From NCBI RefSeq assembly GCF_001548275.1, contig NZ_AP014945.1, positions 480,001 through 512,000 on the forward strand: 32,000 nucleotides of DNA. Direction: 5' to 3'. This stretch comes from Caldimicrobium thiodismutans. GTDB lineage: Bacteria > Desulfobacterota > Thermodesulfobacteria > Thermodesulfobacteriales > Thermodesulfobacteriaceae. Shown here in pieces: positions 2,017-32,000 of this stretch. Numbering within the stretch: position 1 is the first letter of the stretch; each line of letters begins with the position of its first letter. A model generated the notes under the pieces. It was not told the DNA's origin. It worked only from the letters and a program-made list of their open reading frames with translations, and ran no database searches. The position numbers and the translations under genes were made by a program.

Positions 2017-2047
2017 GGTTGAATTAATTTAGCATCAGACTTGAAGA

Positions 2048-2367
2048 TTACAAGATAGTGTATGCGTCCGTATCTTTTTAAGACTCAAATCTGCCCCTAC
2101 ATCCAATCCAAGTCAATCATTTTTTGAATAATTTTTATCGAATTTTCATTTCATAGTAAGGGCAAACCTATGTGTTTACCATCTTTTAGCAAACCTATGT
2201 CTTTGCCAGTTGTGTGTTCGTTTAAACTATTAGGCAGATACGCAAGGATTGGGTAGACACTATAGATTTGCCCCTTCTTTAACCTCTCACATCTTACCAC
2301 CCTTCCTTTTTCTTGTAAGGATAAGGTGCTGAACTTATGCAGATCTGAACTTATGCAGTCTTGCAAA
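2048..2367 (-). repeat. Mosaic intergenic repeat, copy A (element reads on the minus strand toward the EamA start)
   Basis: Hand alignment of rc(2294..2322) with 31550..31578 gives 27/29 identical. rc(2348..2367) vs 31502..31521 gives 19/20. rc(2156..2216) aligns with 10251..10304. rc(2058..2086) matches 24/28 plus a 1-nt indel to 31683..31710. It contains an internal direct repeat ctgaacttatgcag at 2329..2342 and 2345..2358. Confidence 0.7.
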
Positions 2368-2407: not shown

Positions 2408-3184
2408 TTATTTTTTCATTTTGGGTGCTTCAGGAATGTTTGATCCGTGACATTCTCCACAATTTTGCTGAGCTGTAATACCAAAGGTTCCAGCTGGGGA
2501 CCATTTTACCCCTTCATGAAATTTTCCATCCTTCCAGGCATTAAGCATCATAGTCAATTGATAGGCAACGCTTGCTGCAACTCTTGCACATCTATCCTTT
2601 CTTTCAGGACTTGCCAGTGCAAACCCCGAGGCCTTCATCCACTTACCAACTGAGATATGACAAAGAGGGGAACCACTCATCGTTTGCACAATGCGTTCTT
2701 TGTTTGCTTTAGGATTTTTAGGTTTGTATGTGGGTAAATCGGTATTACTATACCAGTCTAAAAGATTAGTAGAGATAATGTGTCCTACCTCGGAACCACT
2801 GATTCTTGGACCGCAGATACAGTTGGCAACAACGGCTGCGCCGTTAATTGAGCCACAAAGAGTTCCCCAGCCAGCAAGCCCTCCTTCCTGAATAATAAAG
2901 GCGTCTACTGGAAAGGAAGCATAAGGCTCGCCTATTTTTTCAGCTAATTGAGAAAAAATAGAACTAATTACTGCAGCTCCACAAAAGACCCTATACCATT
3001 CATTGTAAGCAATTTCAGCTGTTTTCTCAGGATCCAGTTTTTCATAAGGCCAGGGCCATTTTTGAGTTTTCATCTTAGCTTCTGCAGAAGTAACCAGATC
3101 AATTTGAAAGGCTTTAGAAAGCAAAAGCCCGGCACTAAAAAGTCCAGACCCAATTAAAAAATCCCTTCTGCTCACATCTCCCAT
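2408..3184 (-). CDS. Tat-exported C_GCAxxG_C_C-type redox protein with C-terminal CxxCH haem motif (split-Soret cytochrome c-like)
   Basis: 258 aa with a twin-arginine signal SRRDFLIGSG. Cysteine blocks are VFCGAAV, LCGSINGAAVVANCICG, SPLCHISVG and DRCARV, with C-terminal NCGECH. A strong SD (aaaggaggtg) precedes the ATG. Confidence 0.8.
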   Translation of the reverse strand: MGDVSRRDFLIGSGLFSAGLLLSKAFQIDLVTSAEAKMKTQKWPWPYEKLDPEKTAEIAYNEWYRVFCGAAVISSIFSQLAEKIGEPYASFPVDAFIIQEGGLAGWGTLCGSINGAAVVANCICGPRISGSEVGHIISTNLLDWYSNTDLPTYKPKNPKANKERIVQTMSGSPLCHISVGKWMKASGFALASPERKDRCARVAASVAYQLTMMLNAWKDGKFHEGVKWSPAGTFGITAQQNCGECHGSNIPEAPKMKK

Positions 3185-3371
3185 ACTAACACCTCCTTTT
3201 AATTTTTAAGGTTATTAAAAGTAAAAATATAAAAATAAAATTGTCAAGAGAAAAAGTATTTAAATTTTTAAATTAATGATTAAATGAATTTTTAAGATTC
3301 TCAATAAGAGAATTATGCAATAAGATTTCTCTTGTTTTTTTTTAATTAAGGGCTATATTTATAAAATACAT

Positions 3372-3445
3372 GCGCCCGTAGCTCAACTGGATAGAGCATT
3401 GGACTACGAATCCAAAGGTTGCAGGTTCGAGTCCTGCCGGGCGCG
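3372..3445 (+). tRNA. tRNA-Arg (anticodon ACG)
   Basis: Folded by hand as a cloverleaf: acceptor gcgcccg/cgggcgc, D stem gctc/gagc, anticodon stem ttgga/tccaa with loop ctACGaa, T arm gcagg-ttcgagt-cctgc, discriminator G. CCA is not encoded. Confidence 0.93.
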
Positions 3446-3589
3446 TGTTTTTTGGTTTTCAAGGCCTGGTTCAGTAAAAAGTGTCAGTGAGCCCTTTTTG
3501 TGCCACTTAAAAATCGGGTGTAATTGTCTTTTTTTGACTTTGATTTCTGGGGGTTGTTTAATTATAAATATGGTATGGGGCTTTTCTGA

Positions 3590-4045
3590 CATTGTGGGGA
3601 GTGCAAAAAACATGTCAAATTTGGGTCTGTTTGTGGATGTGGTAGAAGTGAGGGAAAAGCAAATGGATATCTGGTAAGGGTTAAATTTGAGAATGTAGTA
3701 ATTAGAAAATTTTTTAAAGATTTTGAAGTCGCAAAGGCAGTAGATGTAGAGCTTGAGAGAAGGAAAGAGCTTTCAAAGCTTGCCAGGAAACTGAAAGGTG
3801 TAGATGATGGTTTAGCAAGAGTTCTTGGAGTTGAGGAAGAGGAAAAAGGGAAATGGGTAAAAGTAAAAATCTTCTGGGCTAAGTATTATCAATGGCTTGT
3901 TCTTCATAAAAAGCAATCTACATTGCGAGAAAGACTTTCACGATGGAAAACGGTGATAAAGCCATATTTTGGAGAAAGATTTCTCAGTGAGATAACTCCT
4001 TCTGATGTGGAAAAATTTCAATTCTTGGGATTAAATTTCTTCTAA
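3590..4045 (+). pseudogene. Tyrosine recombinase (phage-type integrase) N-terminal fragment, no start codon, catalytic domain missing
   Basis: Frame 2 is open from 3590 to the stop at 4043..4045 but has no ATG/GTG/TTG. It reads ...KANGYLVRVKFENVVIRKFFKDFEVAKAVDVELERRKEL...WAKYYQWLVLHKKQSTLRERLSRWKTVIKPYFGERFLSEITPSDVEKF. This resembles the arm-binding plus SAM-like core-binding N-terminus of integrases. It ends about 150 aa in, and nothing downstream resembles an R..HxxR..Y catalytic domain. Confidence 0.55.
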
Positions 4046-9643: not shown

Positions 9644-10075
9644 TTAAAATATGGTTTTTCCTTCCCACTCTTTTTCGAGTTCCTCTGCAGCTTTTTCCTT
9701 TTCCTTAACCATTAATTCCCAATCTGTTCTTTTTTCAAAAAGGGAGACCTCGGTGCGGATTAGATTCTGGCGAAAATGCGGGCGTGAAAGATAAGGAAGA
9801 ACTGCTTTTAAAAAGTTTTGCTTTATACTTTTATAGACCTCCCAGACCTCTTCTTCGGGAATGAAGGTTCTTTCCTTGCGATATCTGTAATAGAGGTTCC
9901 CATCCGTATTTTCTAAAAAATACCGGTAATAAAGCTCATCTGAAAAGTCTTCTCTCTCAGGAGTAACCCGGATTTGAGCAAGGAAGCCAACCAACCAGCG
10001 ATCTCCAGCAATTTTTCTTGAATAATCCCAGATTTCAAGGGTAAGGCCATTTTCAAGCTGAATTTTTTCTAACAT
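9644..10075 (-). CDS. Hypothetical cytoplasmic protein, no family recognised
   Basis: Listed as ORF 9644..10132. The internal ATG at 10075 (MLEKIQLENG...) has a strong SD (gggaggg) 5 nt upstream, so I call the shorter 143-aa form. Composition is protein-like. Confidence 0.65.
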   Translation of the reverse strand: MLEKIQLENGLTLEIWDYSRKIAGDRWLVGFLAQIRVTPEREDFSDELYYRYFLENTDGNLYYRYRKERTFIPEEEVWEVYKSIKQNFLKAVLPYLSRPHFRQNLIRTEVSLFEKRTDWELMVKEKEKAAEELEKEWEGKTIF

Positions 10076-10164
10076 TTTTCCCTCCCATTTAGGGTCAGAA
10101 CCAGCGCAAGGAGGCAGCCAATTGTAACCCATAATTTATTTAAAAATACTACTCTGCTCCAGAT

Positions 10165-10394
10165 TTTCAAGTCGCCTTATCCTTTAAGTATATTCACCAT
10201 CAATATAGGGGACAACTCTAAAGTGCCTGCCCTAATGGTGCAAAGGAAAACACAACGGGCAAATACTTCGCCACAAAGGGGCAAACACATAGGCTTGCCC
10301 CTACAAAAAAATACAGGTTCATTTTCCTGCAACCGAAGTAGGAGAAAAATCTTCTTAAGTCTCAAAAGATATGGACTTATACATATACTTGAAA
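10165..10394 (+). repeat. Mosaic intergenic repeat, copy B (upstream of the HlyD/ABC operon)
   Basis: 10251..10304 aligns with rc(2156..2216), including the hairpin gggcaa-acacataggc-ttgccc. 10357..10384 is 26/28 identical to 31683..31710. The element is bounded by an exact 8-nt inverted repeat, tttcaagt (10165..10172) and acttgaaa (10387..10394). Confidence 0.65.
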
Positions 10395-10422
10395 GATTAA
10401 GAGGAAAAGGTATATTTGGTTT

Positions 10423-11529
10423 GTGCGAAAAATTTATATTTTCTTTGGAATTACAATTCTTGCTTTAATCCTTCTTATAATTTTCTCTCAGAAGCTCTTT
10501 AATAAGTCATATCAAAAAGTTGAGATAAGACCAGTTAAAAAATTAATTTATGCTTCTGGTTATGTTAAACCTTTAAATTATGTTTTAATTAAGGCGGAGG
10601 TATCAGGGTATGTAAAAAGACTTTATGTAAAGGAAGGAGATTATGTTAGAAAGGGAGAGATCCTTGCTGAACTTGAAGTTAAGGGGCTACCTTCAAGGAT
10701 TGCAGAAATAGAGGCTAAACTTGCTTTAATAGAGGAGCGGTTAAGATCAGATTCTGATTTTCAAAGAGGTCTAAAGCGGGAAATAGAGATAGCTAAAACA
10801 AATCTAATTAATGAAGAAAAGAAACTTTTGCGGAGAAGAGAGCTTTTCAAAGAGGGTCTTTTACCTAAGGAGTCCTTGGATGAGGCAGAGAGAAGCTTTT
10901 ATAATGCCAAAGATTATTTTGAAAGGCTTAAAAATTCCTTTGAAGACACCCTTAAAGGTCTTAAGGCGGAAAAACATGCTCTTTTACAGCAAAAGAGGGC
11001 TCTTCAAGAAGAGGTCTCCAAGTATTATGTGCAAGCTCCAGTAGCAGGTTTTATACTTAAAAAATATGTAGAGCTCGGAGATTATGTAAATGCCCTCTCC
11101 GGAGAAAACCGGCTATTTAGCCTTGGCAGTTCTGATTTTGAGGTAGTCCTTGAAGTAGACGAAGAATATGCTGGGCTGGTAAAGGAGGGACAAAAGGTTT
11201 TTTTGGCCTTTGATGCTTACCCAAATGAACTTTTTGAAGGGGAAATTATCCTTGTGATAAGGGAGGTTGAAAGGAACAAGAGAAGTTTTTTTGCCAAGGC
11301 AAAACTTTTAAGGCCCCTTGAGCTTCCAGCTCAAGCAACTGCTGAGGCAAATATAGTTCTTGAGGAGCGAGAGGCCCTGGTTATTCCTTTAAAGGCCCTT
11401 CAGAAAGACAATACTGTTGAGGTAAAGGGCAGGGGTAAAGTTCGTATCCAAGTAGGAGAAAAGTTTGGGGATTATGTGGAGGTGATTTCAGGACTTAAGG
11501 CTGGTGAGGAGGTTAGGATTTTTGAATGA
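10423..11529 (+). CDS. HlyD/MacA-family periplasmic adaptor (membrane fusion protein)
   Basis: 368 aa with an N-terminal TM. The lipoyl-like block is GYVKRLYVKEGDYVRKGEILAEL. A long coiled-coil hairpin follows, then beta-barrel blocks (VQAPVAGFILKKYVELGDYV). GTG start; the stop overlaps the next gene. Confidence 0.85.
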   Translation: MRKIYIFFGITILALILLIIFSQKLFNKSYQKVEIRPVKKLIYASGYVKPLNYVLIKAEVSGYVKRLYVKEGDYVRKGEILAELEVKGLPSRIAEIEAKLALIEERLRSDSDFQRGLKREIEIAKTNLINEEKKLLRRRELFKEGLLPKESLDEAERSFYNAKDYFERLKNSFEDTLKGLKAEKHALLQQKRALQEEVSKYYVQAPVAGFILKKYVELGDYVNALSGENRLFSLGSSDFEVVLEVDEEYAGLVKEGQKVFLAFDAYPNELFEGEIILVIREVERNKRSFFAKAKLLRPLELPAQATAEANIVLEEREALVIPLKALQKDNTVEVKGRGKVRIQVGEKFGDYVEVISGLKAGEEVRIFE

Positions 11530-12770
11530 GATATGTCCTTTTTATAGTCCTTGCTTTTATCAAAAAACGCCGGAAACAGACCTTGGTCTCAATCCTCGGT
11601 GTAGCTATAAGTGTTACCGCCTTTATTGTAATGAGTTCTATTATGTTTGGTTTCCAAAAGTATTTTGTTCAACAGGTTATAGATATTGAAGCTCATTTAA
11701 CCATCAAGCCCAAGGAAGAGACTTCTGAAGAGAGACTAATCCGCAGGGTGGATGAAAAAAGTTTAGTAAAGGTCTATGGCAATAAGCCTAAAGAAAAGGA
11801 TAGAATCCTTGGCTGGCGCGAGATTATGAAGATGGTTGAAAAGTATCCTGAGGTTCTTGGAACAGCCCCACACCTTGAAAGTAAAGGAATTTTAAAATAT
11901 GGAGCCAAGGAAAAACCCGTAAGTCTCATTGGAATTCTTCCTCAACTTGAGAGCAAAACCACCGTTATTGAGCGTTTTACCGAATTCAAAAGGCTTAAGG
12001 CCTTTGAGGTGGACAAAAATACATTAATTATTGGAAGGGTTATTGCAAGGGACCTTGGCATTAATGAACTCAATAAAAAAGTGGTTCTCACCCTACCCAA
12101 TGGTGAGACCAAGATCTTCAAGGTTGTTGATTTTTTAAATTCAGGTATTACAAACATAGATTCCACAAGAGTGTATATCCCCCTTCAGACCCTTCAGGCC
12201 TTACTTGATAGAACAGATGAGGTGAATGCAATCCTGATCAAGATTAAAGATGTTAATAAAGCCGAAGCCTTAGCAAGAAAACTTCAAAGAGAAATCAAAT
12301 ACGAGGTTGAGTCCTGGCAAAAGGCCTATTTAAATTTCCTGAAAATCTTTAAAATCCAAAGCATGATTACCTATATGATTGTTTTTGCTATTATCACGGT
12401 CTCTGCCTTTGGAATCTTTAACATTATTATGATGACGGTAATGGAAAAAAGAAAAGAGATTGCCATACTTATGGCTATGGGTTACAATCCCCGTGATATA
12501 ATCAGTATTTTTCTCTCTTCTGGCTTGATTATTAATATAATTGGTGGAATCCTTGGTTTTATTATGGCCTATGGGATTCTTGAATTTTTGGCTAACCTTG
12601 AGCTAAATATTGAGGGACTTTTGAGGAGCAAAGGATTTATCCTTGATAGGTCCTGGAAGTATTATTTCACAGGGTTTTTTCTTTCTTTTATTTTTTCATT
12701 ATTAGCAAGTTTTTACCCTGCCTATCGGGCAAGTAGGTTAAATCCTGTGGAGATATTTCGGAGTCTCTAA
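11526..12770 (+). CDS. ABC transporter permease, FtsX/MacB/LolCE-type
   Basis: 414 aa with TM1, then a periplasmic domain of about 220 aa, then three C-terminal TMs ending in the typical YPAYRASRLNPVEIFR motif. Confidence 0.9.
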   Translation: MRYVLFIVLAFIKKRRKQTLVSILGVAISVTAFIVMSSIMFGFQKYFVQQVIDIEAHLTIKPKEETSEERLIRRVDEKSLVKVYGNKPKEKDRILGWREIMKMVEKYPEVLGTAPHLESKGILKYGAKEKPVSLIGILPQLESKTTVIERFTEFKRLKAFEVDKNTLIIGRVIARDLGINELNKKVVLTLPNGETKIFKVVDFLNSGITNIDSTRVYIPLQTLQALLDRTDEVNAILIKIKDVNKAEALARKLQREIKYEVESWQKAYLNFLKIFKIQSMITYMIVFAIITVSAFGIFNIIMMTVMEKRKEIAILMAMGYNPRDIISIFLSSGLIINIIGGILGFIMAYGILEFLANLELNIEGLLRSKGFILDRSWKYYFTGFFLSFIFSLLASFYPAYRASRLNPVEIFRSL

Positions 12771-12772
12771 GG

Positions 12773-13453
12773 GTGACTCTCTTAAAACTTTTAAAGATTA
12801 ATAAGTGGGTAGGAGGAGAGAGGATTCTTAAAGATATCTCTCTTGAGATAGTAGAAGGTGAATTCATAGCGATAATTGGGCCATCTGGTTCAGGCAAAAG
12901 TTCTCTTTTGTATATTATGGGTTTTTTAGATTGTCCAAGTTCTGGTGATATACTTTACAGAGGTAAGCCCATAAATTTTGCCGAAGCGAATACAATTTCA
13001 AGGCTCAGAAACGAAAAGATGGGATTTGTTTTCCAGTTTCATTATCTTATTCCAGAGTTAAATCTTATTGAAAATGTTATGGCTCCTCAAATTAGAAAGG
13101 GGATATCTCCAAAGGAGGCTAAGGAAAGGGCAGAAACCCTTTTGGTTAGATTGGGCCTTAAGGGAAAAGAAAAAAGACAGGTCTTTGAGATTTCTGGTGG
13201 AGAGATGCAGAGGGTTGCCATTGCAAGAGCTCTGGCCAATTCTCCGGAGATTTTACTATGCGACGAACCTACGGGAAATCTTGATTCCAAAAATACCGAA
13301 AAGGTTATGGAGATTTTTGAAGAAATCAATCAGGAAGGCACAACAATTGTGCTTGTTACCCATGATCTTAGTTTAGCCAGAAGAGCAAAGAGAATTATAG
13401 AGATGAGAGATGGTGAAATCCTCAAGACAACTCCTCTCAATGGAGCGCTATGA
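12773..13453 (+). CDS. ABC transporter ATP-binding protein (MacB/LolD-type)
   Basis: Walker A is GPSGSGKSS, the signature is SGGEMQRVAIARAL, Walker B is LLCDEPTGNLD, and the H-loop is VTHD. Confidence 0.95.
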   Translation: MTLLKLLKINKWVGGERILKDISLEIVEGEFIAIIGPSGSGKSSLLYIMGFLDCPSSGDILYRGKPINFAEANTISRLRNEKMGFVFQFHYLIPELNLIENVMAPQIRKGISPKEAKERAETLLVRLGLKGKEKRQVFEISGGEMQRVAIARALANSPEILLCDEPTGNLDSKNTEKVMEIFEEINQEGTTIVLVTHDLSLARRAKRIIEMRDGEILKTTPLNGAL

Positions 13454-13721
13454 ATTTTTTTTAAAATTCCTTGACGAAAAAGATAGGATCTATCTAAAAG
13501 AACTTTTTTATTTTGAGCCTGATTGTGCGGAATTTATTTCTCGTAGGCTCAATATTGACTTGAAAGAAATCAAAGGGCGTCTTAAATTTTTAGAAAATTT
13601 AGGTATCATTAAAAGGGTTTTTATTAAAGAAAACTATATTTATTTTGAAATAAGGCCTGAGTGGAGGGCATTTTTACGAAAATATTATATGGAAGGGAGA
13701 GATGATGAATCAAGAGGTTGA
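13440..13721 (+). CDS. Small hypothetical protein, possible winged-helix fold
   Basis: The ATG at 13440 ([10 protein letters not shown]...) overlaps the ABC ATPase end by 14 nt, and the 3' end overlaps the lon start. The segment [42 protein letters not shown] looks like HTH plus wing. I recognise no family. Confidence 0.5.
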
Positions 13722-16068
13722 AGAGACTTTAACAGAAGTTCAGGAAGGAGAAATCATAGATGTCCCTGAGGTTTTACCCCTTATGGCAATAAGGGACATG
13801 GTTTTATTCCCCTCTATGGTCGTCCCCCTTTTTGTAGGGCGAACCAAATCTTTGAAGGCTATTGCGGAAGCCTATGAGAGAGAAAAACTTATTGTCCTTG
13901 TTACTCAGAAGAATTCGCGGCTTGAAAATCCCAAGGAAAAGGATCTTTACCGCATTGGAACCCTTGCCTTAATTCTCAAAACGATTACTCTTTCTGAAAT
14001 TCGTAAAAAAGTAATTGTCCAGGTTATTTCAAGGGTTGAGATAAAGGAGTTTTTAAAAAGTGAGCCCTTTTTTGAGGTAAGAATTGAGCCCTGTAAAGAA
14101 AGGGAACCTGAGGCTATAACCCCTGATATTGAAGCCCTCATGCGCTCCATTAAAGAAAATACTGAGAAACTGCTCAATCTTAAAGGGCTCCTTAACCCTG
14201 AAATATCTCATGTAATTCAATCTATAGAAGAACCAGGCAGACTCTCAGACCTTGTCAGTGCATACCTGAAACTTAAAGTCTCTACAGCTCAGGATCTTCT
14301 TGAGACCTTGGATGGCTTTGAGAGACTGAAAAAGATATCTAAGATACTTCTTGAGGAGATTGAGATAACCACTCTTCAAAATAAGATTCAGAGCGAAGCG
14401 CAGGAAGAGATGGGAAGAACTCAGAGGGAATATTTCTTGCGTCAGCAGTTGCGAGCCATAAAACGGGAACTTGGTGAGGAAGAGGACATTGAATCTGAGA
14501 TTATTGAAATTCGTAAAAAGATTAAAAAGGCCAAAATGCCCAAGAAGGTTGAAGAGGAGGCCTTCAGACAGCTTAAACGCTTAGAGATGATGCACCCTGA
14601 ATCAGCTGAAGCTGCAGTTTTGAGAAATTATCTTGAATGGTTGATTGAGCTTCCCTGGAGTATCTCTACCACCGATAATTTAGATCTAAAACATGTGAAA
14701 GAGGTGCTGGATGAGGATCACTATGATCTTGAAAAAATTAAAGAGAGGCTCCTTGAGTTTTTAGCAGTTAAGAAGATTAATCCCAAGGCTAAAGGAGCTA
14801 TTATTTGTTTTGTTGGTCCACCAGGGGTTGGAAAAACAAGTCTTGGAAGGTCGATTGCTAAGGCCTTAGGTAGAAAGTTTGTGAGAGTTGCCCTGGGTGG
14901 AGTTAGGGATGAGGCAGAAATTAGAGGTCACAGGAGAACCTATGTGGGGGCTTTGCCTGGAAGAATTATCCAGGGTATTAAGCAGGCTGGGGTAAACAAT
15001 CCTGTTTTTCTCCTGGATGAGATTGACAAGCTCTGCATCTCCTTTCAGGGAGACCCTTCCGCTGCACTTCTTGAGGTGCTTGATCCTGAGCAGAATAAAG
15101 AATTTATTGATCACTATCTGGATGTGCCCTTTGATTTATCCAAGGTGCTTTTTATTGCCACTGCAAATATGGTTGAGCCCATTCCGCGGGTTCTCCTTGA
15201 CAGGATGGAGACTATTTATCTCTCTGGCTATACTTACAAAGAAAAACTTGAAATTGCCAAAAGGCACCTTCTTCCCAAATTGTTAAAGGAGCACGGGCTT
15301 AAAAAGAAGAATTTTCAATTGAAGGATGAGGTTATTTTACGGATAATAGAAGAATACACTTCTGAATCAGGTGTTAGAGAACTTGAAAGAAAACTTGCTG
15401 CCCTTTGTAGAAAGATAGTTCGTAAGATGGCGGAAGGTGAAACAGGGCCTTTTGAGATAAAAGAAGAAAATTTACCTGAATTTTTAGGTCCTCCAGAGTT
15501 TATTGAGGATCTGAGACTTACTCAGGATGAGATAGGTGTTGCAACAGGACTTGCCTGGACTCCTTATGGAGGAGAAGTTCTCTATGTAGAGGCAGTGATC
15601 ATGCCTGGAAAGGGTAATCTGATTTTAACGGGTTCCTTAGGAGATGTAATGAAAGAGAGTGCTCAGGCAGCCCTTTCTTATATTCGCTCGCGCTGTGATG
15701 AGCTTGGAATTGATCCAAAGTTTTATACAAAATACGATTTTCATGTCCATGTTCCTGCGGGGGCCATCCCTAAGGATGGACCAAGTGCAGGGGTTACCAT
15801 AGCTATGGCTTTAATCTCTTCTCTTATAAAAAAGCCCCTTTCTAAGGACTATGCTATGACTGGAGAGATAACCTTGAGGGGAAGAATTCTTCCAGTAGGA
15901 GGGATCAAGGAAAAGGCTCTGGCTGCTTTAAGAAAGGGCATAACCCGTGTAATAATTCCTGCTCAAAATGAAAAAGATCTTCAAGAGATACCAGAGGACT
16001 TAAGAGATCAGATTACATTTATAAAAGTTTCACATTTAGATGAAATCAGAAAATTGGTGATAAAATAA
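13702..16068 (+). CDS. lon: ATP-dependent Lon protease (LonA)
   Basis: 788 aa with the LON N-domain ([23 protein letters not shown]), Walker [10 protein letters not shown], Walker B FLLDEIDK, and the protease serine motif KDGPSAGVT with a downstream K (GGIKEK). Confidence 0.97.
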
Positions 16069-16073
16069 AAAAT

Positions 16074-16631
16074 ATGGTAGAAGGAAAAAAGAGAGGGCGA
16101 AAACCTAAGGAGAGCCTCGATAGAATTAAGAGAGAACCTCTTGAGATTGTAGATGAAAATTGTGAGCCCCTTGGAGTGCTCTCAAGAGGTGAGGTTCATG
16201 CTCGGGGACTTTCTCATAAAGCTGTGCATATCTTTATATTTAATTCAAAGGGAGAGATATATCTTCAGAAAAGGAACTTAGATAGAGAGGAGCATCCAGG
16301 TCTCTGGAGCTCTTCAGCCTCAGGACATTTAAGCCCTGGGGAGCCTTTACTCCTTGCTGCTCAGAGAGAACTAAAAGAAGAGCTCAAACTTAAAGTTAAG
16401 CTTGATGAGGCCTTTAAGGTTAAACCTTGTGCTGAAACCAACTGGGAGTGTACAACCCTTTTTGTAGGAAATACCGATAAACTTCCTAAACCTAATCCCT
16501 CTGAGATTTCAGAGGGAAAATTTTTCTCAATCTCCGAACTTGAACGACTTATTGCAGAAAGCCCTGAGATATTTAGCCCTACTTTTATTTATCTCTGGAG
16601 GATTTATAAAGAATATTTAGCTCAGGAATAA
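16074..16631 (+). CDS. NUDIX hydrolase
   Basis: The Nudix box is GHLSPGEPLLLAAQRELKEELKL (G-x5-E-x7-REUxEExGU pattern). The fold is similar to IDI/YfcD-like members. Confidence 0.85.
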   Translation: MVEGKKRGRKPKESLDRIKREPLEIVDENCEPLGVLSRGEVHARGLSHKAVHIFIFNSKGEIYLQKRNLDREEHPGLWSSSASGHLSPGEPLLLAAQRELKEELKLKVKLDEAFKVKPCAETNWECTTLFVGNTDKLPKPNPSEISEGKFFSISELERLIAESPEIFSPTFIYLWRIYKEYLAQE

Positions 16632-20203: not shown

Positions 20204-20668
20204 CTACAGAAGGTTGAACTTTCTTAAAATTTCCGCAAACCTTTGATCCTCTTTAGCAAACTCTCTTAAGGCCTCAAGAACCCTCTTCAAGGTCCCATCT
20301 TTCTCAAGGGCTTCAAGAGCCTCCCTTCTTGCCTCTCTCAACATTGTCCTCCTATCCCATAAGGCAAGACCAATAACTGCTACAACTAAGGCTGTAAATA
20401 TCCCAGAAAGAATCCATAGAAAATTTCTAAGCTCTTCAAACCTTTTGTCAATTTGCTCAAACCTTTTGTCAATCTGTTCAAACCTTTTGTCAATCTGTTC
20501 AAACCTTTTGTCAAATTCCGTAAGTTTTGCCTCTACCCTGATAAGTCTATCCCTATCCTCAAGGGTAAAGGGCACCTCCTTTGCAGAATAGGATACCCCA
20601 TATAAAGTCATCTCAAAAAATATTAAAAAAAGAAATCCAAAGAAAACTTCTTTAAATTTGCTCTGCAT
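20204..20668 (-). CDS. Membrane protein with four tandem heptads (DKRFEQI), function unknown
   Basis: 154 aa. An N-terminal hydrophobic segment is followed by the coiled-coil FDKRFEQIDKRFEQIDKRFEQIDKRFEEL, then a TM (FLWILSGIFTALVVAVIGLALW) and a helical tail. SD aggagga. It is the first gene of the minus-strand operon. Confidence 0.75.
   Translation of the reverse strand: MQSKFKEVFFGFLFLIFFEMTLYGVSYSAKEVPFTLEDRDRLIRVEAKLTEFDKRFEQIDKRFEQIDKRFEQIDKRFEELRNFLWILSGIFTALVVAVIGLALWDRRTMLREARREALEALEKDGTLKRVLEALREFAKEDQRFAEILRKFNLL
20445..20528 (-). repeat. 21-bp tandem repeat x4, in frame within the 20204..20668 CDS
   Basis: The units are ttcaaaccttttgtcaatttg, ctcaaaccttttgtcaatctg, ttcaaaccttttgtcaatctg and ttcaaaccttttgtcaaattc, arranged head to tail. 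Confidence 0.95.
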
Positions 20669-31448: not shown

Positions 31449-31501
31449 AAAATCTAACCCCTTGGAAAAACTTTTTCTAAAATATAATTAATTTTCCAGG
31501 G

Positions 31502-31720
31502 TTTGCAAGCCTGCATAAGTTTTTATTCTTTCAAGGTGCATAGGTTCATATCCTTAGAAGAAAAAGAAAGGGTGGTAAAAAAGCCCCATGTAGGGGTCTA
31601 AAATTTTAAACCTCTACTTAAGGAAAGATTTTGCAGATTATTTATCCTTTCTTTCCAAAGGGGAATGGGCATAGTGTCCATAGAGTCTCAAAAGATATGG
31701 ACTTATACACACCTCTTGTC
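31502..31720 (+). repeat. Mosaic intergenic repeat, copy C (upstream of the ATP synthase beta gene)
   Basis: 31502..31521 is 19/20 identical and 31550..31578 is 27/29 identical to the reverse complement of copy A. 31658..31678 (aaggggaatgggcatagtgtc) resembles rc(2256..2276). 31683..31710 is 26/28 identical to copy B. Confidence 0.7.
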
Positions 31721-31752
31721 TTATTATAAAAATTTTTATATAATTTTTAAAA

Positions 31753-32000
31753 ATGGAAGCAACCTACAAAGGGTATATTAGGGCTATTCATGGCCATATT
31801 ATTGAAGCTTTCTTTCCAGAGAATATACCTCCTATTCGCTCTATATTATTTCATAAAAATGAAAAAACAGAACATCTCTTTGAAGTAGAGACTCATTTAG
31901 ATCATCAAAGGGTGCTTGCTTTATCCCTTGGACATACAGAGGGATTGAAAAGAGGCCTACCCCTCTATACTTACAATAATCCCCTTTTATTCCCTGTGGG
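31753..32000 (+). CDS. atpD: F-type ATP synthase beta subunit, N-terminal barrel domain (3' end outside window); possibly N-ATPase type
   Basis: GYIRAIHGHIIEAFFP...LFEVETHLDHQRVLALSLGHTEGLKRGLPLYTYNNPLLFPVG follows the beta-subunit N-terminal pattern (G.V..V.G.V.D..F ... EV..HLG...VR.IA...T.GL.RG..V...G.P..VPVG). The sequence is divergent. Confidence 0.65.
   Translation, partial: MEATYKGYIRAIHGHIIEAFFPENIPPIRSILFHKNEKTEHLFEVETHLDHQRVLALSLGHTEGLKRGLPLYTYNNPLLFPV

Follow-up and report, generated by a model that had tools for sequence, protein, structure and literature searches.

To our knowledge, promoter-targeted insertion has so far been documented for one transposase superfamily, at an offset different from the one reported here. 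The TnGBS integrative and conjugative elements, the ISLre2 family (p-MULT 3) and the ISKra4 group (p-MULT 4) are promoter-targeting prokaryotic Mutator-like DDE elements (Guerillot et al. 2014, PMC3942029). TnGBS, ISLre2 and some elements of the ISKra4 group have their insertion sites about 16 bp before the -35 box of sigmaA promoters, with the right inverted repeat on the promoter side and with the asymmetry of the repeats setting the orientation (PMC3942029). Here a repeat family is described from a 32,000-nucleotide stretch of Caldimicrobium thiodismutans DNA (contig NZ_AP014945.1, positions 480,001 to 512,000; called the window below). Its three intergenic copies in the window, A, B and C, are probably copies of a lineage-specific, non-autonomous element of the miniature inverted-repeat transposable element (MITE) kind, with a right end 5-6 bp before a -35 box and with position and orientation set by a transposase. 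The EamA and YebC proteins encoded in the window are 100% identical to C. thiodismutans proteins (THC_0480), and its G+C content is 37%. The literature gave no description of MITEs in Thermodesulfobacteria; the RepRanger paper has the C. thiodismutans genome only in a table.

A family of intergenic repeats

The homology between three intergenic regions that a preliminary description of the window had reported is real and far beyond chance. B and C share an exact 26-mer (10358-10383 = 31684-31709; repeat search, blastn E = 4e-9). A matches C at 28/30 positions (2294-2323 vs 31549-31578) and at 19/20 (2348-2367 vs 31502-31521), and the 3' block of A matches C at 24/28 plus one indel. A hairpin unit in the middle of A is identical to B at 17/18 positions (2160-2177 vs 10283-10300), inside a 46-nt stretch at 74%. 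The two direct copies noted in the 5' block of A are tandem CTGCATAAGTTCAG units at 2344-2358 and 2328-2342.

Two further copies, D and E, both 5' of promoters, were found outside the window. They lie in a 20-kb Caldimicrobium locus (L035), reached by using the 83-aa open reading frame (ORF) of copy A, purely as a probe, against 1.84 billion proteins (HMMER); the probe returned a 94-aa L035 "protein" that joins A-like and B-like segments. This locus is from a related lineage: its flavin reductase clusters with the TF1 protein at 90% identity and differs from it. D is 76% identical to A over 200 nt, 81% to B over 166 nt and 69% to E over 269 nt, and it matches C at both ends (D 1-42 = 31537-31578 at 93%; D 247-270 = 31686-31709 at 100%). 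An nhmmer profile built from six copies recovered A, B and C at E = 3e-71, 3e-41 and 2e-26 (1e-26 to 1e-74 overall) and found no further copy in ~240 kb of Caldimicrobium loci, and none in any relative's locus. The evidence is based on five loci in two lineages, with three dispersed copies in the 32-kb window and two in the L035 locus.

Judged by their alignment, A to E are one family, descended from what appears to be a single ancestor of ~270 nt. In the six-way alignment the common backbone consists of a left end (TGCATARGTTCAKATCC-TTACAAGAAAAAGGAAGGGTGGTAAGAGG), a middle with a ~20-nt direct repeat (..GTGTCTGCCCAAT..), two palindromic units of the type GGCAAAC-ACATAG-GTTTGCC, a linker, and a 26-nt right end, AGTCTCAAAAGATATGGACTTATACA. 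Block 2 of the left end is conserved in A, C, D and E. Individual copies range from 173 to 299 nt. The middle is missing from C, and the first 9 nt and block 2 from B; in A the linker differs and the left unit occurs twice in tandem. The copies look mosaic because they differ in deletion and duplication of the common backbone. Of the earlier view that blocks had been shuffled, lost or expanded, loss and duplication stand, and the alignments with D and E replace shuffling by differential deletion and duplication of one backbone. The location given for A was also right, and its length of ~320 nt was too generous: the element proper is ~299 nt, and 2358-2367 is a 10-nt extension also found to the left of C.

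Position relative to promoters

In all five copies the right end is 5-6 nt upstream of a sigma-70-type -35 hexamer, and the copy is co-oriented with the downstream gene. The offsets for A, B, C, D and E are 5, 5, 6, 5 and 6 nt, the hexamers are of the form TTGnnn, and a -10 box follows 16-17 nt later (Table 1). By the same criteria, the background rate of such promoter sites in the window is 0.0007 of all positions and 0.002 of intergenic positions. The promoters of B, C, D and E were found independently by an automated promoter scan. With 5/5 right ends 5-6 bases before a -35 box, the element either targets promoters on insertion or survives only there. The regularity is best read as insertion, or survival, only directly upstream of promoters and in one orientation.

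The downstream genes are unrelated, being EamA, macA(B), the N-ATPase gene atpD, rRNA P1 and a flavin reductase gene. The promoter at D is the first of three tandem promoters before a 16S rRNA gene (Rfam), and that at E is followed by a Shine-Dalgarno sequence and the flavin reductase gene; D is at a katG-rRNA junction and E at a PBP-flavin reductase junction. The co-orientation with transport and energy operons previously reported holds as to orientation; the association is with promoters generally, copies also being present before an rRNA operon and a flavin reductase gene. The gene identities given then (EamA, HlyD/MacB/ABC and the N-terminus of an ATP-synthase beta subunit) were correct. 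The distance to the start codon is similar in A, B and C, ~42 nt, because all three precede promoters with a -10 box 6-9 nt from the start codon.

Occurrence among relatives

Near-identical contigs are present in a JGI metagenome (L009, 98.5-99% over 21 kb) and in the mixed assembly GCA_017880035.1 (L001). Copy A occupies a gap of 391 nt between the C_GCAxxG_C_C gene (2408-3184, - strand) and a 144-aa EamA gene (1582-2016, - strand). As had been noted, it follows the terminator of the upstream gene (2382-2398), and 42 nt separate its last shared base (2059) from the EamA ATG (2016). In two relatives with an 88% identical EamA and the same flanking genes (L004 and L005, C_GCAxxG->EamA), copy A is absent and the gap is 92 nt vs 391 nt in the window. 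In the shorter gap the terminator is followed by 28 nt and by ATTGTAAT-16-TAAATT-10 nt-ATG. This gap still has the terminator, CTATC and the promoter, and comparison with it places the right boundary of the A insertion at ...GCATACA / CTATC TTGTAA. Three other loci (L006/L007 and L008) also lack A and keep the promoter. The arrangement TTGTAA/TTGCAA-16/17-TAAATT-9/10 nt-ATG is present in L004, L006 and L008, all without the element.

B is absent upstream of macA in L010 (MacA 76% identical), where TTGCAA-16-TATATT-7 nt-GTG precedes the gene, and C is absent upstream of yebC in L011 (YebC 97%) and L012 (92%); the neighbouring genes differ in all three. Because the same promoters exist in relatives without the element, those at A and B demonstrably predate the insertion.

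Copy A also changes faster than its surroundings. Between strains that are 98.5-99% identical it has 14 substitutions and a 22-nt indel in ~300 nt, with ~120 nt of identical flanks; the indel leaves a single left unit in L009, vs two in the window.

The assembly GCA_017880035.1, which contains L001, L008 and L035, is a mixed bin with contigs from at least two Caldimicrobium lineages. L001 is ~99.7% identical to the window across copy C, with an identical YebC, and the EamA of L008, which lacks copy A, is only 84% identical.

Terminal repeats, coding capacity and folding

The element begins with TG and ends with CA, and has imperfect terminal inverted repeats (TGCATAGGTTCATATC / reverse complement TGTATAAGTCCATATC, 13/16). 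Comparison of the first 16 nt with the reverse complement of the last 16 gives 13/16 in D and in C with its inner left unit, and 10-11/16 in A and C with their outer units. The figure for E is 11/16, obtained by hand with the right end put in register. The chance of a match of at least 12/16 is ~9e-5. Pairing of the inverted repeats is the sole long-range helix recovered in 6/6 sequences by RNAalifold.

ORFs through the copies had no Pfam match at E <= 10, and the reading frame is not kept between copies. The idea that these pseudo-ORFs are gene remnants was dropped, the 1.84 billion proteins having given only the pseudo-ORF of another copy and a low-complexity protein. The Rfam search found only a tRNA-Arg in the window, and nothing in copy A at E <= 1. 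A MITE-like mobile module, among the possibilities raised in the preliminary description, is supported by the inverted repeats, the empty sites, the unrelated loci, the change faster than that of the flanks, and the lack of coding or Rfam signal.

Comparison with known elements

The family resembles TnGBS, ISLre2 and ISKra4 in its fixed distance and orientation upstream of the -35 box, with the right repeat next to the promoter (5/5 copies), in its asymmetric inverted repeats, and in leaving the targeted promoter intact. It differs in the offset, 5-6 bp as opposed to 15-17 bp (peak 16 bp, PMC3942029), and in the length of the possible target duplication, 5 bp as opposed to 8-9 bp. The copies are also ~270-nt non-coding derivatives for which no transposase was found, in a host of the phylum Thermodesulfobacteriota. 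A text search for TGTATAAG/TGCATAAG in a part of the inverted-repeat tables of PMC3942029 gave no matching repeat. Of the elements described so far these are the closest in behaviour, and membership is not claimed.

Bacterial MITEs, such as the Correia/NEMIS elements of Neisseria and RUP of Streptococcus pneumoniae, are likewise small (200-300 nt), non-coding and intergenic, with terminal inverted repeats, presence/absence polymorphism, variants that have lost internal sequence, and an interior that is less conserved than the ends. MITEs in general, however, do not keep strictly to one position and orientation with respect to a pre-existing promoter, and the present family has a tandem duplication of the left end in A and C.

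Repetitive extragenic palindromes (REP) and bacterial interspersed mosaic elements (BIME) are also intergenic repeats with imperfect palindromes of ~20 nt (here GGCAAAC-ACATAG-GTTTGCC), sometimes two in tandem. In the present family, by contrast, the palindrome is internal and dispensable, being absent from C, and is carried on a 270-nt backbone with terminal inverted repeats of 16-26 nt; the element also sits before promoters, whereas REP and BIME, with a unit that is a palindrome of 20-40 nt and lacks long inverted repeats, usually sit after genes. The earlier suggestion of a BIME-like or REP-like module is not supported for the whole, only the one internal 20-nt palindromic unit being REP-like. 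An origin from IS200/IS605 as a palindrome-associated transposable element, a kind with subterminal hairpins at both ends, a conserved 5' target motif and no terminal inverted repeats, was rejected: the element ends pair with each other and not locally, the hairpins are 60-100 nt from the right end, and neither D nor E has TTTGCAAGNC on its left.

Possible origins of the regular placement

If A, B and C derive from a transposable element, the conserved ends (left ~45 nt, right 26 nt) would presumably be bound by a transposase provided in trans. This enzyme would select position and orientation upstream of the -35 box, and the asymmetry of the inverted repeats would set the orientation, as in TnGBS, ISLre2 and ISKra4. 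The inserted copies would then decay into the mosaic now seen, C losing its middle, B part of its left repeat, and A gaining a tandem duplication. Transposition may well be of the DDE type, with active targeting as opposed to selective retention. GGGGC is present on both sides of D and may be a 5-bp target duplication. The katG homologues in the same 90% cluster end in ...GA, as expected if the empty site reads GGGGC-TTGACA, because the stop codon would be the TGA inside TTGACA.

Several points weigh against this origin. Only D shows what may be a target-site duplication; A and E have none, and B and C have rearranged left ends. There is no transposase in the window, and the scans gave no autonomous element with these inverted repeats. 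The copy counts are those of the window and the relatives' loci, as opposed to the whole C. thiodismutans genome. The -35 boxes on either side of B and C are back to back and leave a gap of 8-9 bp that the element fills, so that its position there is constrained under any mechanism and only A, D and E bear on the specific distance; in these three more room is available and the offset is unchanged. A carries TTTGCAAGAC, which in C is the native flanking -35 of yebC, and this fits copying with flanking DNA better than clean transposition. The right-end block is better conserved than the interior, with 1 mismatch in 26 between B and D vs 19% in the interior, and 2/26 between D and E vs 31%, which could instead reflect a host function. 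Strict scans with this block gave 1 match in 185,579 species genomes, a set without the C. thiodismutans genome, and 0 in JGI metagenomes.

A host function is central to the idea that the element, or its 26-nt block at ~-41 to -66, is a portable upstream promoter module. It would be UP-element-like or an activator site, copied before promoters including rRNA P1 and kept by selection for altered activity, and its TGCATAAGTTC-type sites, direct and inverted, would bind one DNA-binding protein. This is unlikely, even though the phasing with the -35 box is fixed in 5/5 copies, the motif recurs 3-5 times per copy, and the place of one copy is exactly that of the UP and Fis-type sites of rRNA promoters. 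The near-invariance of the right-end block also speaks for such a module (26/26 between B and C; in D 24/24 aligned, 25/26 by eye; 25/26 in the different species of locus L003), the interiors differing by 19-31%. However, the EamA and macA promoters exist, with their geometry kept, in relatives without the element, and relatives whose flanking proteins are 88-97% identical do not have it. The downstream genes share no function, the block is not A/T-tract-like, unlike UP elements, and the L003 copy is not followed by a promoter. In A the block has drifted (21/26 plus an indel) and has changed further between 99% strains. A duplicated cis-regulatory module, as proposed earlier, is disfavoured by the unrelated downstream genes and the absence from close relatives, and the 26-nt right-end block may still have such a role.

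It is rather improbable that the segments were copied without a transposase, by illegitimate or microhomology recombination or by gene conversion, with junctions at similar -35 surroundings (C-TTGnAA). A does carry the left flank of C, including the -35-like TTGCAA (19/20), the reconstructed targets of A, B and C are near-palindromic (TTKCAAG-N6-7-CTTGNAA), and both the lack of a clear target duplication in A or E and the failure to find a transposase agree with such copying. On the other hand, the ends of D and E are clean TG...CA with no TTTGCAAG extension beside them, the match between the terminal inverted repeats is significant, D has GGGGC on both sides, and the right junction is at the same element base in five unrelated flanks. 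The chances of a structured non-coding RNA or a 5' leader, whether riboswitch-like or a family of small RNA genes, are very small. Folds are more stable than those of shuffled sequences (z = -3.2, -3.6 and -1.9), because the terminal inverted repeats pair. One hairpin has a compensatory C-G / T-A change, the third stem pair of unit 3 being C-G in B and E, T-A in D and the L009 copy of A, and T.G in A of the window (columns 185/200). RNAalifold gave a weak consensus (-11.4 kcal/mol) with an unfavourable covariation term, and the middle is deleted in C. The leader RNA once suggested can be set aside, as the right end of each copy comes before the -35 box of the next gene and leaves the element outside that mRNA. 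The element is probably not a regulon module either.

Other explanations of the blocks were rejected. Readings as sigma-54, extracytoplasmic function (ECF) or sigma-32 promoters misfit in their spacings, by eye. The right-end block as a promoter in itself (TTAAGT-17-TATACA) was dropped, the native promoters being conserved in relatives 5-6 nt downstream. A hybrid promoter, in which an outer inverted repeat TTTGCAAG/CTTGTAA would supply the -35 box, does not agree with the native -35 boxes of L004, L006, L008, L010, L011 and L012.

A wider proposal can be made only tentatively, namely that Caldimicrobium has a promoter-reading transposition system. Its transposase, possibly through contact with RNA polymerase or with region 4 of sigma, would dock a 270-nt element one 5-bp stagger before the -35 box and always in one orientation. 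At promoters such as those of rRNA P1, the efflux pump and the N-type ATPase, the 26-nt right end is in the place of an UP element and would perhaps have been co-opted for tuning.

Neighbouring genes and other features

Copy B lies in a gap of 290 nt before the HlyD/MacB/ABC operon (10423 onwards), and copy C in a gap of 304 nt between yebC (- strand) and an N-ATPase-type operon, the first gene of which encodes the beta subunit. The parts of the copies and the promoters beside them are listed in Table 1. In A, the 10-nt left extension and the following 10 nt match the left flank of C at 19/20 positions, where the counterpart of the extension is the native -35 region of yebC.

Table 1. Copies of the element, their parts, and the adjoining promoters. 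Positions are those of the window unless L035 is named; numbers between boxes are spacers in nt.
Feature	Position	Strand	Description
Ends expected of an autonomous partner			TGCATARGTTCATATC ... GATATGGACTTATACA
Copy A	2059..2357	-	299 nt, outer left inverted repeat TGCATAAGTTCAGATC to right end ...GATACGGACGCATACA
Left extension of A	2358..2367	-	10 nt, TTTGCAAGAC: -35-like TTGCAA + 3 nt
Two tandem left-end units of A	2325..2357	-	TGCATAAGTTCAGATC (2342-2357) and TGCATAAGTTCAGCACC (2325-2341); left terminal inverted repeat, duplicated
Block 2 of A	2294..2323	-	TATCCTTACAAGAAAAAGGAAGGGTGGTAA; with left repeat forms conserved left end
Internal palindromic units of A	2161..2207	-	GGCAAAGACATAGGTTTGCT (2188-2207), GGTAAACACATAGGTTTGCC (2161-2180)
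Right-end block of A (right inverted repeat)	2059..2085	-	AGTCTTAAAAAGATACGGACGCATACA; most diverged copy of block
Right junction of A	2054-2058		CATACA / CTATC (5 nt) / TTGTAA / 16 / TAAATT
EamA promoter	2026..2053	-	-35 TTGTAA (2048-2053), 16-nt spacer, -10 TAAATT (2026-2031); ATG 9 nt on, 2016
Copy B	10174..10383	+	~210 nt; left inverted repeat truncated; middle, hairpin, linker and right-end block kept
Hairpin of B	10278-10302	+	GGGGCAAACACATAGGCTTGCCCC
Right-end block of B	10358..10383	+	AGTCTCAAAAGATATGGACTTATACA; 26/26 with C, 25/26 with UBA6232 locus L003
Right junction of B			TATACA / TATAC (5 nt) / TTGAAA / 16 / TATATT
macA promoter	10389..10416	+	TTGAAA-16-TATATT; GTG at 10423
Divergent promoter of 162-aa gene 9644-10132	10143..10170	-	TTGAAA-16-TATTTT; -35 3 nt from left edge of B
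Copy C	31512..31709	+	198 nt; middle deleted or replaced
Left units of C		+	outer degenerate unit 31512-31536; inner left inverted repeat TGCATAGGTTCATATCC from 31537, then block 2
Right-end block of C	31684..31709	+	26/26 with B
Right junction of C			TATACA / CACCTC (6 nt) / TTGTCT / 17 / TATAAT
N-ATPase-type atpD operon promoter	31716..31744	+	TTGTCT-17-TATAAT; ATG at 31753
yebC promoter	31481..31508	-	TTGCAA-16-TATATT; -35 3 nt from left edge of C; native, conserved in L011 and L012
Copy D	L035 9949-10218		full-length copy, related Caldimicrobium contig
Right junction of D			TATACA / GGGGC (5 nt) / TTGACA / 17 / TATTAT
Copy E	L035 18391-18627		fifth copy
Right junction of E			TATATA / AAGCAC (6 nt) / TTGACT / 17 / TAAAGT

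B (10322-10346) and D (L035 10157-10181) have a common 9-bp stem-loop, TTTTCCTRCAACCGARGTAGGAGAA, with G.T in B and A-T in D. It was flagged as terminator-like, lies directly before the right-end block, and could stop read-through into the downstream promoter.

A solitary right-end block (25/26) is present in the metagenome-assembled genome UBA6232 of the Thermodesulfobacteriaceae (L003 40-460 and 640-710), ~200 nt after the degenerate end of a CRISPR array with the repeat GTTGAAACCTGCCCTGGTTCTCAAGGGATTGCGAC. It is flanked by a perfect 8-bp inverted repeat, ATACTCAG...CTGAGTAT, and no promoter follows it. The ORF stub before this copy was considered as the C-terminus of a transposase and rejected, having no Pfam or NCBIfam match and one spurious PDB match.

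The metagenome scan with block 2 (CTTACAAGAAAAAGGAAGAGTGGTAAGAGGT) gave 42 matches, all of them chance, the viral scan 21 chance matches, and plasmids (blastn) none. One JGI metagenome contig matches block 2 at 30/31 nt (L066 3469-3498), within what by eye is an HtrA/DegP-like coding sequence (..LKEKGRVVRGYLGV..). The similarity does not extend, and the match was treated as chance in purine-rich sequence.

The N-ATPase-type operon after C (window 31753-32000, L001 3642-9695) has the N-ATPase-type gene order beta, two small ORFs, a, c, b, alpha, gamma. It looks like an accessory island. In L013 the whole operon is missing between yebC and the cytochrome b/RuvABC block, and this block is also inverted.

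The starts at 2016 (-), 10423 (+), 31753 (+), 8688 (-), 10132 (-) and 22388 (-) have no Shine-Dalgarno sequence and have a -10-like hexamer 4-10 nt before the start codon. These are operon-first genes (EamA, macA with GTG, atpD, a radical-SAM gene, the 162-aa gene and an AAA/PD-(D/E)XK gene), and other genes have a clear GGAGG. This suggests that leaderless mRNAs may be common in the organism.

On the 3' side of the tRNA-Arg gene (3371-3446), the window has a segment of 554 nt (3463-4016) in the place of which the 99%-identical L009 carries 136 nt of unrelated sequence (3463-3598). By eye, the segment seems to contain the N-terminal part of a tyrosine-integrase-like ORF (...WVKVKIFWAKYYQWLVLHKKQSTLRERLSRWKTVIKPYFGERFLSEITPSDVEKF), and it is likely to be what remains of an element that integrated at the tRNA gene. 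A 154-aa hypothetical gene (ORF 20204-20668, - strand) contains four to five in-frame tandem 21-nt repeats (CAAACCTTTTGTCAATCTGTT) at 20429-20533. In L035 the 23S rRNA gene spans 3.76 kb (12416-16178) and holds a LAGLIDADG ORF (14725-15189), presumably an intron-encoded homing endonuclease.

Implications

The element accounts for several unusually long intergenic regions in C. thiodismutans, and ORFs of 80-94 aa that cross it should not be called genes. A lineage-specific MITE would by itself be routine; five copies at the same offset and in the same orientation before promoters are not. If true, the proposed system would add to the promoter-targeted transposition known in bacteria a second kind with a geometry of its own; neither a MITE nor a thermophilic Thermodesulfobacteriota lineage would have provided a case before. 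Having two geometries to compare would be of use in working out how a transposase recognises a promoter or its bound polymerase. Such elements would add DNA in the UP-element and activator zone without destroying the promoter, and may therefore be a route to regulatory change in a compact genome, including that of the rRNA operon.

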